Source: Escherichia coli O157:H7 (GTDB taxonomy: Bacteria; Pseudomonadota; Gammaproteobacteria; Enterobacterales; Enterobacteriaceae). Taken from it: a stretch of 64,000 bases of DNA. Made by a program: the position numbers. Numbering within the stretch: position 1 is the first letter of the stretch; every line of letters begins with the position of its first letter. The stretch lies in NCBI RefSeq assembly GCF_013167455.1, contig NZ_CP038328.1. One strand, written 5' to 3'. Shown piece after piece: positions 48,501 to 51,500 of this stretch.

Positions 48501-51500
48501 CGTGGTGACCGCCAGCTCGCTTAAGGTTTCATGCGCGCCGCCAGGTACCGGCACTTCGGTACCAATGACATACTCCAGATCGGCTTCGCCAAAGTGTTCA
48601 AGACAGGTTTCTTCCGCCACTTTCGCCAGACGGGCGGCGCGTTCAGCCACGATGTCATCAGTTAAGGGAATCGGATCGTCCTGACAGGACATGCTGCAAT
48701 CAAGGTGGATTTTTTTGAATCCTGCCGCAACGTAGCTTTTAATCAAATCATCGGCATTGGCCATTGCCTGAGCGGCCGGCAGGTTTTGCCAGCGGTTTGG
48801 CCCCAGATGGTCACCACCCAGAATCAACGCATCCTGCGGGAAATTCAACGAGTCGGCGAGCTGACAAACAAAGCCGCGAAAATCGGCGGGCGTCATTCCG
48901 GTATAACCGCCGAACTGGTCTACCTGATTGGAGGTTGCTTCAATCAGTAACGGCGTTTGGTTTGCACTGGCGTAGCGGATTGCAGCCTCCAGCACCAGCG
49001 GATGTGCGGAACAAACGGCATAAATTCCATTTGTTTTGCCCGCTTTGTGCTGTCTCACCATTTCTGTCAGATGTTTCACTTTCCTCTCCAGTTCAGATTA
49101 CTGCGATATTAATCTTTCGTTTTGTTTCAGTTGATACTGCGTCATGGTGAGATAAAAATAAAACGAAAGATAATAGTTTTCTGATCTGATTCACAAAAGA
49201 AACATAATGAAAGTCACTGAAACGAGAGTAGCTTGCGTCAATGGGCAAGGTGGGCTTGCATTTGCTTAATAGAAAGGCGTTAATAGGCAAAACGAAATGA
49301 AACGAAAGTTTTACGAAAGGACTTACTATGAGTAATACCGACGCTTCAGGTGAGAAGCGAGTGACAGGCACCAGCGAGCGACGAGAACAGATCATTCAGC
49401 GTCTGCGACAGCAAGGGAGTGTGCAGGTTAACGATCTGTCGGCATTGTATGGCGTATCTACCGTGACGATCCGCAACGATCTGGCGTTTCTGGAAAAGCA
49501 GGGGATCGCTGTGCGTGCCTATGGTGGCGCGTTGATCTGCGATAGCACAACGCCGTCAGTCGAGCCATCAGTGGAAGATAAAAGCGCGCTGAACACCGCA
49601 ATGAAACGCAGCGTTGCGAAAGCTGCCGTTGAGTTGATTCAGCCAGGTCATCGGGTGATCCTCGATTCCGGGACCACCACTTTTGAGATTGCTCGTCTGA
49701 TGCGCAAGCACACTGACGTAATTGCGATGACCAACGGTATGAACGTGGCTAATGCGTTGCTGGAAGCGGAAGGCGTTGAGCTGCTGATGACCGGCGGGCA
49801 TTTGCGCCGTCAGTCGCAATCTTTTTACGGCGATCAGGCTGAGCAATCGCTGCAAAATTACCACTTCGATATGCTGTTTCTTGGTGTAGATGCGATCGAT
49901 CTGGAGCGCGGCGTCAGCACGCATAATGAAGATGAAGCCCGTTTAAACCGCCGGATGTGCGAAGTTGCGGAACGGATCATCGTGGTCACCGATTCCAGTA
50001 AATTCAATCGTTCCAGTTTACATAAGATCATTGATACTCAACGTATCGACATGATCATTGTTGATGAAGGCATTCCTGCGGATAGCCTGGAAGGGCTGCG
50101 AAAGGCTGGGGTTGAAGTGATTCTGGTCGGGGAGTGAGAAAGGGTGCCCGCTGGTCAACACGAATGCGTTCGGCGGGCATTGTGAACACCATCAATGGGT
50201 TTCTTCTGTCTCTCGGGTGAGGGTTTCCCAGTCGGCAGGAGGATGTCCTCTTTTTAACATTTTGCTGAATACGGTATAGGCATCTGTTTTTTTACCGTAG
50301 GTGCGCAGCGTGTTTTCATCGTTCATCCATCCCAGAATGATGACTTTCTCTTTTTCACTGTAACGAAAGAAGAGACGATAGCGACCAGCACCAAATTTTA
50401 CCCGTGACCAGTCTTTATTTTTCCCAGAGCCTAACGACTTGCCATGACGGAATGCCGGTGATGATGGATTGACCGTGATATGCTCCTCAATCACTTTATG
50501 GACCACCGCCAATAACTTTGTGGCAGCTTTTCTCTGATAATTTTCAGGATCTTTTCCCTTTAATGTCTCGACTTCGGCAACTAAAGCGTCGTAGGTTTCC
50601 TGAAAACAGGGATGAGCATATAGCGCCCAACCATTAACCCTTTGTGGAAAATCCATTATTCGTCGTCGCCAATCTCATCATCAATGTTGACGTCCATGCC
50701 AGCGACAAGTTTCTTTCCTTGTTGAATGTTGAATGGACGAGTTTTTTGCGGGTTGTTCTGGATATCTGTATCCAGAAAACGCAAAAATGCATTCATAGTA
50801 TGATCCTCCTGCTCATCTCCCAGTCGGCACATAAATACTTGCCCACCAGGCAGAATTTCGTAATGAATGCTGTCCTGGCCTGGCTTCAGTTTTAAGGCCT
50901 CACGCACTGGCGCGGGGATAGTTGTTTGTCCGCGTATCGTGACCTTTGATTCAGTGGTCAGTACAGCGTGAGAGCGAGCATTAGCGGGCATGATTCACTG
51001 TCCTTTTACAGCCTGTTTTCTGCTCAAATTATAAGCTTGAACTAAGGTAATGCAAATGCATTATTAATGGACGTGGGGGCTTTAAACAATAAAAACATGG
51101 CACTAAGGCCATGTTTTGCGAGGGACGTTCCAAAAGAAATCAGGTCACCGGTGCTGGGTTAAACACCGCCAGCTGGTTATGCAGTCCCCATTGATCCGAG
51201 AAGGTTTTCTTCTTCCCGCTGGCGACGTCGAGAATAAAGTGGAACAACTTCCAGCCCACCTCTTCAATGGTTTCTTCGCCGGTGGCGATAGTGCCCGCGT
51301 TAATATCCATTAAATCAAACCAGCGGTTCGCCAGCTCGGTGCGGGTCGCCATTTTAATGACGGGTACCGCCATCAGGCCGTACGGCGTACCACGACCGGT
51401 CGTAAACACTTGCACGGTGATACCCGAAGCCACCTGTTGCGTGCCACAGACAAAATCGCTGGCTGGCGTCGCGGCGTAAATTAATCCGCGTTTAGTCGGG

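Follow-up and report, generated by a model that had tools for sequence, protein, structure and literature searches.

A preliminary description of the 64,000-nucleotide stretch of Escherichia coli O157:H7 DNA analysed here (contig NZ_CP038328.1; hereafter the window) had pointed to two small genes at 50192-50991 as a PrlF-YhaV type II toxin-antitoxin module. This raises the question of whether the pair is an intact copy of that system, how it would be expressed and repressed, and which role it might play in the cell. PrlF-YhaV has reportedly been described as an E. coli toxin-antitoxin system since 2007, in work by Schmidt et al., so that the system is already known and its identification is nothing new. 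Modest as a discovery, the locus is of use in giving the annotation of the window a correct anchor point, to which the analysis adds, as modest extras, a cross-genus operator footprint, the exact bounds of a cassette polymorphism and natural length variation in a repeat tract.

The window encodes an intact prlF-yhaV pair

The ORF listing places both genes on the minus strand, which had not been specified before, with the antitoxin gene upstream: prlF (also sohA; antitoxin and autorepressor) occupies 50656..50991 and encodes 111 amino acids, and yhaV (toxin) occupies 50192..50656 and encodes 154, each starting with ATG. Coordinates, lengths and gene order are thus exactly those first proposed. 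A homology search, which had been named as the check on which the family assignment should stand or fall, placed both products far above the cut-offs in the expected families. PrlF matches the Pfam family PF15937 (PrlF_antitoxin) with 141.4 bits (cut-off 32; E = 1.1e-41, profile positions 1-99 of 99) and the NCBIfam equivalog NF007429 with 169.6 bits (cut-off 125; positions 1-113 of 114), and YhaV matches PF11663 (Toxin_YhaV) with 181.9 bits (cut-off 35; E = 7.8e-54, positions 1-137 of 138); the NCBIfam scan of YhaV returned no matching model. The window has 100% matches among chromosomes of E. coli O157:H7; in one such record, identical at 100%, the RefSeq annotation has both coding sequences in the very same places and names the first of them prlF. 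Since the Pfam E-values are this low and the RefSeq coding sequences coincide, chance is excluded as an explanation for the pair. The genes have the layout of a type II module, being small, adjacent, co-directional and overlapping, with the antitoxin first and no adopted terminator between them. No result spoke against the identification, and taking the evidence together, we put at roughly 95% the probability that the locus is the type II toxin-antitoxin operon prlF-yhaV of the E. coli chromosome, intact and working in the way proposed below. Antisense ORFs, such as one of 83 amino acids at 50644..50895 on the plus strand, were without support and were dropped, and an Rfam scan of the locus found no RNA family.

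Comparison with the K-12 counterpart bears out that this is a chromosomal and well-described system. YhaV is identical to K-12 b3130 over 154 of 154 residues, its gene differing at six nucleotides that are all synonymous, and PrlF is identical to b3129 at 110 of 111 positions (99%), with Thr75 (codon 50767-50769) in place of the Ala75 of K-12. Over both genes, this one substitution and seven synonymous changes are the differences found, together with one changed base in the flank of a hairpin downstream. The two loci share the order garD / prlF yhaV / agaR, the gene lengths and the TAATG junction, and are identical in promoter, operator, Shine-Dalgarno site and the intergenic region upstream. 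We assume that the exchange at residue 75 is neutral and would expect no functional difference from K-12.

This comparison also bears on whether the pair might be a decayed, non-functional remnant. Decay does occur elsewhere: some strains carry frameshifted prlF alleles or frameshifted YhaV variants of 200 amino acids, and about 186 genomes are without the cassette altogether. In the window, however, neither ORF is truncated, the YhaV sequence is identical to that of the active K-12 protein, the control elements and junction are those of K-12, and a slippage-prone repeat in prlF (see below) is in its wild-type two-copy state. The remnant reading is effectively refuted by the sequence, and we reject it for the window.

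Control elements suggest a repressed bicistronic operon with coupled translation

At the junction, which reads GAC GAC GAA TAATG GAT TTT on the minus strand, the TAA stop codon of prlF (50658-50656) and the ATG start codon of yhaV (50656-50654) share base 50656 within the TAATG motif (50654..50658, minus strand). The one-nucleotide overlap noted earlier is therefore real. Among relatives the spacing is -1, -4, +2, +5 or +7 nucleotides, so that tight spacing is conserved and the exact overlap is a trait of the lineage and not of the family. The order of PrlF followed by YhaV was kept in all seven relatives examined. Upstream of the yhaV start we find only a degenerate Shine-Dalgarno-like GACGA, at which relatives have GAGGA, and prlF is preceded by a good AAGGA (51001..51005, minus strand) read from the sequence nine nucleotides before its ATG. 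The TAATG junction suggests that translation of yhaV may be coupled to that of prlF.

The best promoter-like site in the region is a sigma-70-type promoter at 51028..51056 on the minus strand, which matches the consensus at 10 of 12 positions, can be read as TTTGCA-17-TATAAT or TTGCAT-16-TATAAT, and is identical in K-12; the TTGCAT...TATAAT arrangement recurs in the Yersinia, Erwinia and Salmonella-prophage loci and in locus L017. Overlapping its -35 hexamer is the 16-bp palindrome TAATGCAttTGCATTA (51048..51063; arms TAATGCA and TGCATTA around tt). The core of this inverted repeat is found at -72 to -84 in the Salmonella, Yersinia, Erwinia and Kosakonia loci as well as in L017, with diverged flanks, and because it is kept in these four other genera we consider it the probable operator and a candidate site of autoregulation. 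In line with this, according to a review, a palindromic sequence of the prlF promoter is bound by the PrlF-YhaV complex (PMC7781912). The promoter and terminator scans have to be read against their chance levels, with four promoter-like sites found where 1.9 were expected and three terminator-like sites where 1.4 were expected. An internal promoter-like sequence at the 3' end of prlF (TTGATG-18-AATAAT, 50684..50655, 9 of 12 matches) is at chance level, as are two terminator-like sites inside coding regions, and none of these was adopted.

The operon is flanked by two hairpins. On the upstream side, terminator scan and folding identify the intrinsic terminator of garD at 51092..51117 on the minus strand (AAAACATGGC-cttagt-GCCATGTTTT followed by a T-run; -13 kcal/mol, z -2.27), which shields prlF-yhaV from transcription running on out of garD. 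In the gap between yhaV and agaR, which are convergent, lies the GC-rich inverted repeat TGCCCGC...GCGGGCA (50145..50179), folding with -23.9 kcal/mol (z -2.84) on the plus strand and -17.8 kcal/mol (z -1.06) on the minus strand. It is probably a terminator structure, albeit without a clean T-run, and it was not flagged in the terminator scan.

Combining these elements, we propose that a single sigma-70 promoter would give rise to a bicistronic prlF-yhaV mRNA from which PrlF is translated at its own good ribosome-binding site, whereas YhaV would be made mainly through coupling at the TAATG junction; the antitoxin would therefore be in excess. PrlF would bind and neutralise YhaV, and the complex, seated on the palindrome, would repress transcription of its own operon, possibly by occluding the -35 hexamer. 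If PrlF were depleted or the balance otherwise shifted, free YhaV, a predicted RelE/ParE-type toxin, would cleave mRNA in a manner reported to depend on translation, and the cell would enter a reversible growth arrest. For K-12 the pair was found on a single transcript with an antitoxin-to-toxin mRNA ratio of 1.11, the antitoxin being favoured at the level of translation (PMC5535158), and reviews refer to published toxicity of YhaV and rescue by PrlF (PMC7781912, PMC5408214), a PrlF2-YhaV4 complex and frame-dependent cleavage by YhaV bound to the 50S subunit (PMC7781912). As the K-12 proteins are identical or nearly identical to those encoded here, their toxicity and rescue, complex formation, DNA binding, RNase activity and shared transcript are likely to apply to the O157:H7 pair as well.

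YhaV is predicted to adopt a RelE-type fold and PrlF may resemble AbrB/MazE antitoxins

The AF2 model of YhaV is confident (pLDDT 91.2), and a Foldseek search of the PDB with this model returned only RelE, HigB/HigB2, YoeB, ParE and PfiT among the top 40 matches (PfiT 9.5e-5, E. coli RelE 2.9e-3, probability up to 1.00). TM scores normalised to the target range from 0.6 to 0.79, with 0.72 for ribosome-bound RelE (4v7k), and those normalised to the query from 0.33 to 0.49. Compared with RelE, YhaV has about 60 more residues, and the model features two additional long N-terminal helices, H16-35 and H44-60. On this basis YhaV is predicted to be an endoribonuclease of the RelE/ParE superfamily with a RelE-type alpha/beta fold, in which N-terminal helices pack against an antiparallel sheet. 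Alignment of the YhaV family profile with the E. coli RelE sequence using hhalign was not significant (E 0.18, probability 0.3); the link to RelE is consequently one of predicted fold, and we do not claim a residue-by-residue catalytic match. A PDB profile search with the YhaV family returned nothing, and PDB sequence searches with PrlF and YhaV gave chance matches or none and no solved structure of either protein.

In an alignment of 31 family members, R85, K87, R92, R94, R98, R118, Y120, K123, D125 and Y127 of YhaV are invariant. Two arginine substitutions were reported to abolish the RNase activity, their positions not being named (PMC5408214); the five arginines conserved in the 31 sequences (R85, R92, R94, R98 and R118) are all present in the YhaV of the window. 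The reviews conflict with regard to the ribosome, one describing YhaV as independent of it (PMC5408214) and the other as bound to the 50S subunit (PMC7781912). The module might thus be the same with YhaV acting as a free, ribosome-independent RNase on mRNA and rRNA, closer to MqsR or MazF than to an A-site nuclease of the RelE kind. In vitro, YhaV was reported to digest mRNA as well as 16S and 23S rRNA without ribosomes (PMC5408214, citing Schmidt 2007), and its greater length, extra helices and low query-normalised TM scores mean that its docking could differ from that of RelE. The structural matches, however, are to ribosome-dependent toxins (RelE, HigB and YoeB), and RefSeq names the K-12 protein 'ribosome-dependent mRNA interferase toxin YhaV', so that we consider ribosome-independent action rather improbable.

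PrlF combines a putative N-terminal AbrB/MazE-like DNA-binding region at approximately residues 13-52, with the motif SKVTxRGQTTIPxxVREALKLxPG, and an acidic C-terminal tail, VNIDDEIGDDE. An AbrB-type fold is suggested by a set of sub-threshold matches, to MazE_antitoxin (PF04014, 19.5 bits, below the cut-off of 24.7), to AbrB (TIGR01439, 27.1 bits, below the cut-off of 28.3) and, weakly, to PDB chains of the AbrB family (E around 0.03) and SpoVT (0.17); the resemblance of the N-terminus to MazE, AbrB and SpoVT is thus weak, all matches being below cut-off or non-significant. The AF2 model of the monomer is poor (pLDDT 63.5; beta-alpha-beta-beta topology) and its Foldseek matches were meaningless, which would come as no surprise if folding of the domain required an intertwined dimer and its tail were disordered.

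With RelBE, HigBA, YefM-YoeB, PfiAT and ParDE, the pair thus appears to have the toxin fold in common, and it also shares with RelE/ParE-superfamily modules an antitoxin gene that comes first, probable autoregulation, and mRNA cleavage reported to be associated with the ribosome. It differs from them in its antitoxin, which appears AbrB/MazE-like rather than of the RelB/RHH type, and from MazE systems in that the partner is a RelE-type and not a MazF-type toxin; the reported PrlF2-YhaV4 stoichiometry (PMC7781912) is unusual. The pair has been termed a 'hybrid' module (PMC5408214).

In E. coli the pair is a near-universal cassette between the aga and gar clusters

As initially described, the pair lies between the aga and gar clusters: yhaV neighbours agaR (49328-50137, plus strand) and prlF neighbours garD (51140-52711, minus strand), with the aga cluster and garPLRK beyond. 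It is present in nearly all complete E. coli genomes (5136 of 5426). Roughly 70 bp take the place of a 1005-bp segment in the approximately 186 genomes without the cassette, and alignment with strains APEC E12053 and 382634_2f sets its bounds at 50134..51138. This segment comprises the final codon of agaR with its stop codon, the downstream hairpin, yhaV, prlF, the promoter and operator, and the garD terminator. In a distant relative the divergence of the pair equals that of its own flanks, which suggests a long vertical residence of the E. coli pair.

Homologues occur in prophages, adjoining Phage_pRha/ANT genes in Salmonella and a lysis cassette in Yersinia, as well as in 328 plasmid records, 175 of them conjugative, and YhaV matches the phage protein family phrog_14237 (2.1e-54). 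Together with the discrete presence/absence segment, these occurrences would fit a cassette that serves abortive infection of phages or the retention of its own DNA segment. The E. coli copy, however, is bordered by core metabolic operons, has no mobility genes next to it and appears vertically inherited, no PADLOC defence model matches PrlF or YhaV, and the literature searched held no phage phenotype for prlF-yhaV. We therefore judge such a role to be very unlikely.

A heptanucleotide repeat in prlF varies in copy number among natural isolates

Codons F87-Q91 of prlF contain a direct repeat of the heptanucleotide TTCAACA, present in 2.3 copies (50720..50735, minus strand; TRF). The tract is a known slippage hotspot, in which the 7-bp duplication of the prlF1 type arises. 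This duplication has been selected repeatedly in the laboratory, where it lowers ompF and sodB mRNA and confers beta-lactam heteroresistance (PMC7686311), and it relieves the proteotoxic stress of gene amplification (PMC12107188).

These phenotypes bear on whether the pair is mainly a regulator of stress and proteostasis rather than a growth-arresting 'addiction' module; PrlF would then modulate Lon protease activity as well as the expression of porins or of the envelope, with toxicity as a side property. The discovery of prlF through its suppression, by way of Lon, of protein-export and htrA defects (PMC7781912, PMC5408214), the selection of yhaV loss-of-function mutations in chemostats (PMC5960147) and the suggested long vertical residence are consistent with this. 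On the other hand, the literature offers no explanation of how PrlF acts on Lon, YhaV is under purifying selection (six synonymous against zero non-synonymous changes from K-12, and many invariant residues), and the homologues on plasmids and prophages are what is typical of mobile toxin-antitoxin cassettes. A primarily regulatory role is thus possible, though we would not call it probable. Regulator and toxin-antitoxin roles are not mutually exclusive.

Beyond being a laboratory hotspot, the tract could also be a natural contingency locus, in which slippage reversibly switches the C-terminus of PrlF among three frames. The idea is speculative and we hold it to be distinctly improbable; if true, slippage would relieve repression of the operon, increase the activity of Lon and reduce OmpF, giving rise to heteroresistant subpopulations in the wild. 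From laboratory evolution the repeat is already known to give beta-lactam heteroresistance and Lon hyperactivation. Copies were counted with a three-copy repeat query; a synthetic five-copy query was unusable, as the wild type matches it as two perfect pieces. Among natural isolates, alleles with 3, 6, 7, 12, 14 and 19 copies were verified, covering all three frames and with yhaV intact, and Shigella sonnei database proteins imply 7, 10 and 13 copies.

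Identity of the gene pair

The preliminary description placed an antitoxin gene ahead of a toxin gene at 50192-50991, and the ORF listing and direct reading find exactly these: prlF (111 aa, ATG start) at 50656..50991 and yhaV (154 aa, ATG start) at 50192..50656. The 1-nt overlap between them is also present, with the addition that both genes lie on the minus strand, which had been left unstated; the minus-strand junction reads GAC GAC GAA TAATG GAT TTT, base 50656 being common to the TAA stop of prlF and the ATG start of yhaV. A Shine-Dalgarno sequence, AAGGA, is located 9 nt 5' of the prlF ATG (51001-51005, minus strand), and the yhaV ATG has only a degenerate GACGA on its 5' side. 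The homology search that had been proposed as a check places both products far above the Pfam cut-offs, in PrlF_antitoxin (PF15937, E 1.1e-41, 141.4 bits against a cut-off of 32) and Toxin_YhaV (PF11663, E 7.8e-54, 181.9 bits against 35), respectively. In the NCBIfam profile search the prlF product matches the PrlF equivalog NF007429 (169.6 bits, cut-off 125); no NCBIfam model matched the yhaV product.

Compared with K-12 MG1655, YhaV is identical at 154/154 residues and PrlF at 110/111 (Thr75 in the window, Ala75 in K-12), the six differences in yhaV DNA are all synonymous, and the 148 bp between garD and prlF are identical. Megablast against 5426 complete E. coli genomes gives 100% identity over 50100-51140 with many O157:H7 chromosomes, and the RefSeq O157:H7 record annotates prlF and yhaV with agaR and garD on either side. 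The pair is the K-12 PrlF-YhaV system itself, not merely similar to it, and is nothing new as a system; its characterization as chromosomal and well described holds. The sequence-testable defining features of the two families are present, and toxicity, neutralisation and DNA binding are taken from published work on an identical toxin and a near-identical antitoxin. The location between the aga and gar clusters likewise holds: agaR (DeoR family by Pfam scan, 49328-50137, plus strand) flanks yhaV, garD (51140-52711, minus strand) flanks prlF, and in the annotated O157:H7 record kbaZ-agaVWEF...agaI lie on one side of the pair and garPLRK-rnpB on the other.

A probable operator in the prlF promoter

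The best promoter-like site of the region in the promoter scan is TTTGCA-17-TATAAT (51056..51028, minus strand, 10/12 matches). Its -35 hexamer is overlapped by a perfect 7+7 palindrome found by inverted-repeat search, TAATGCA-tt-TGCATTA (51048-51063), which is a probable operator. In loci encoding YhaV relatives that are 54-67% identical, plus one at 81%, a palindrome is located 72-84 nt 5' of the prlF homologue: TAATGCAttTGCATTA in E. coli (the window), GGTAATGCAttTGCATTACC in a Salmonella prophage, TGGTAATGCAATTGCATTACCA in a Yersinia prophage, TAATGCAATTGCATTA in Erwinia, CAATGCAttTGCATTG in Kosakonia and TAATGCATTTGCATTA in L017, a diverged enterobacterial contig. The right arm provides the TTGCAT -35 hexamer in every one of these loci, and the adjoining sequence has diverged. 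No such palindrome occurs in a Paracoccus locus, where PrlF has 33% identity. This cross-genus footprint agrees with the reported binding of the PrlF-YhaV complex to the prlF promoter at a palindrome (PMC7781912).

Terminator scan and folding identified a canonical terminator hairpin, with T-run, 3' of garD (51092-51117, minus strand, -13 kcal/mol, z -2.27). A GC-rich hairpin without a clean T-run, found by inverted-repeat search, separates the convergent yhaV and agaR genes (50145-50179) and folds at -23.9 kcal/mol on the plus strand (z -2.84), being less stable on the minus strand (z -1.06). In L017 the cassette sits between two near-identical garD-terminator hairpins (2514-2665 and 3474-3503), AAAACATGGCCTTAGGGCCATGTTTTT upstream and AAAGACATGGCCTTAGGGCCATGTTTTA downstream, which could be the trace of cassette entry into an original bidirectional terminator or an excision substrate.

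Gene order and spacing in relatives

The order prlF then yhaV is kept in 7/7 related loci examined, with spacings of -1 nt (overlap) in the Salmonella prophage, L017 and the further relative L020, -4 nt (overlap) in the Yersinia prophage, +2 nt in Paracoccus, +5 nt in Kosakonia and +7 nt in Erwinia; tight coupling is therefore common to the family, whereas the exact 1-nt overlap is not. Ahead of the toxin start, relatives carry GAGGA and E. coli GACGA, a difference that would fit a greater reliance of E. coli on coupling between the two genes. In published RNA-seq data the antitoxin-to-toxin mRNA ratio is 1.11, in line with a single transcript, and the antitoxin comes out ahead both in translation calculators and in synthesis rates (PMC5535158).

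Mechanism and predicted folds

In the best-supported account, which is the standard one for PrlF-YhaV, the two genes would form a bicistronic, autorepressed operon, excess PrlF would bind and neutralise YhaV, and free YhaV would cleave mRNA and arrest growth; the complex is reported as PrlF2-YhaV4, dimerising on DNA. Two reviews disagree on ribosome dependence, one describing cleavage of mRNA and rRNA in vitro that needs no ribosome (PMC5408214), the other 50S-associated, frame-dependent cleavage (PMC7781912). Translation-dependent cleavage is tentatively favoured, as the more recent finding and the one in keeping with the fold of the toxin.

Neither sequence search nor a 31-member family profile found a solved YhaV structure in the PDB, and the PDB searches found none of PrlF. 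The AlphaFold model of YhaV built on the 31-member alignment is confident (pLDDT 91.2, pTM 0.88), and in a Foldseek search of the PDB the first 40 places are all taken by RelE/ParE-superfamily toxins, among them PfiT (9w3a, E 9.5e-5), E. coli RelE (4fxh and 4fxe), HigB2, M. tuberculosis RelE, YoeB, ParE and RelE bound to the 70S ribosome (4v7k, target-normalised TM 0.72). Because it has about 60 residues more than RelE, and two long N-terminal helices, YhaV reaches query-normalised TM values of just 0.33-0.49. The YhaV profile gave no significant comparison with the RelE sequence, so that the relationship to RelE is supported by the predicted model at the fold level only. Residues R85, K87, R92, R94, R98, R118, Y120, K123, D125 and Y127 are invariant in the alignment, and the arginines among them fit published work in which activity was lost when two conserved arginines were replaced (PMC5408214). 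PDB entry 2KHE, labelled 'YhaV monomer' in one review (PMC7781912), is RelE of Thermus thermophilus and matches the YhaV model at the fold level only (14% identity, E 9e-3).

PrlF has been assigned to the AbrB superfamily (PMC7781912, PMC5408214). Its residues 13-52 gave sub-threshold, mutually consistent matches to MazE_antitoxin (19.5 bits, cut-off 24.7), the AbrB domain TIGR01439 (27.1 bits, cut-off 28.3) and AbrB-family and SpoVT PDB chains (E 0.03-0.2); the PrlF monomer model was poor and the fold search with it uninformative.

The prlF alleles are reported to work via Lon protease (PMC12107188, PMC7781912), and chemostats select yhaV loss of function (PMC5960147). Homologues occur in 328 plasmid records, 175 of them conjugative, and phage protein families were matched by the homologue search; no PADLOC defence model matched the pair.

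Natural variation of prlF and yhaV

Within prlF, the TTCAACA heptamer tract (50720-50735) has two copies, the wild-type state; duplication of the 7-bp unit gives the classical prlF1 allele and is a recurrent laboratory adaptation (PMC7686311, PMC12107188, PMC7781912). Natural E. coli alleles have 3 (as in UPEC-774U, from a recurrent-UTI bladder biopsy), 6, 7, 12, 14 and 19 copies, covering all three frames; in these alleles (L021-L026) the PrlF products are 105-158 aa long and yhaV is annotated intact. Of 5155 complete genomes, only some 21 have a non-wild-type allele. Shigella sonnei PrlF proteins of 130, 144 and 151 aa in the database imply 7, 10 and 13 copies, and the tract is absent in L017.

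Some E. coli genomes encode YhaV variants of 200 aa (P0013, P0025, P0002, P0006), arising by frameshift in an A7 run (YGKKT to YGKKNRCLY; window counterpart near 50285-50291, minus strand) or an A5 run (MLKRGH to MLKKRTSS; 50243-50247), or by stop-codon loss, with the ORF continuing antisense into the agaR 3' end. Both frameshifts remove the invariant residues D125, Y127, P139, P140 and W143, and the resulting toxins are probably inactivated.

A presence/absence polymorphism at the locus

The pair is present at a coverage of at least 80% in 5136 of the 5426 complete E. coli genomes, and its flanks in 5361. The 1005 bp of window 50134-51138, which include yhaV, prlF, the promoter and the two hairpins, form a discrete presence/absence polymorphism: strains such as APEC E12053, 382634_2f and ATCC 11775, the type strain, have in their place about 70 bp that contain a different hairpin (ATGCCCGATA..TATCGGGCAT; empty-allele loci L003 and L004). 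AgaR ends in ...VGDHASSL (274 aa) in the empty allele as opposed to ...VGE (269 aa) with the cassette. About 186 complete genomes carry the empty allele, a figure obtained by subtracting, from 615 full-length matches, the 429 whose identity is 80-90%. Two of these 429 were sampled and one inspected in detail; the sampled matches represent a second, degenerate agaR/UxaA-pseudogene locus. In NZ_CP028767.1 (1909693-1921862; L005) this second locus pairs an intact agaR paralogue (274 aa) with a 'UxaA family hydrolase' pseudogene, frameshifted and in convergent orientation. It shares about 84% identity with the main locus, has an empty-type junction and no TA pair, and adjoins malX and an enterotoxin gene.

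L017 carries the pair at the same site, and there prlF (77% nucleotide identity) and yhaV (74.5%) are about as diverged as garD (83%), agaR (75%) and kbaZ (67%). This points to long residence of the pair by vertical descent and suggests, without proving, that the empty allele arose later, by replacement.

Other features of the window

Running from folP to tdcC, the window is colinear with the O157:H7 record save around one IS element. An IS3-family IS1203/IS629 copy lies at 32713-34022 in the yraJ-yraK fimbrial region, with an Rfam ALIL pseudoknot at 33571-33687; in O157:H7 strain PV15-279 the same element has another position and reversed orientation, and the window is without 349 bp of yraK-side sequence. 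This placement is strain-specific IS activity. In the matching O157:H7 record NZ_AP018488.1, nagA/agaA is annotated as frameshifted and agaI with an internal stop (aga cluster, window ~38-45 kb by correspondence), and yraJ likewise has an internal stop; by correspondence with that annotation, pseudogenes are therefore present in this lineage both in the GalNAc/GalN pathway and in the yra fimbrial operon beside the TA pair. None of the RNAs found by Rfam/ARAGORN scan is in or adjoining the TA locus; they comprise tRNA-Leu(GAG) (2573-2659), tRNA-Met(CAT) (6442-6518), the rimP leader (6607-6707), naRNA4 (11406-11476), the S15 leader (12990-13104), SraG (13334-13505) and rnpB, the RNase P RNA (57401-57777).
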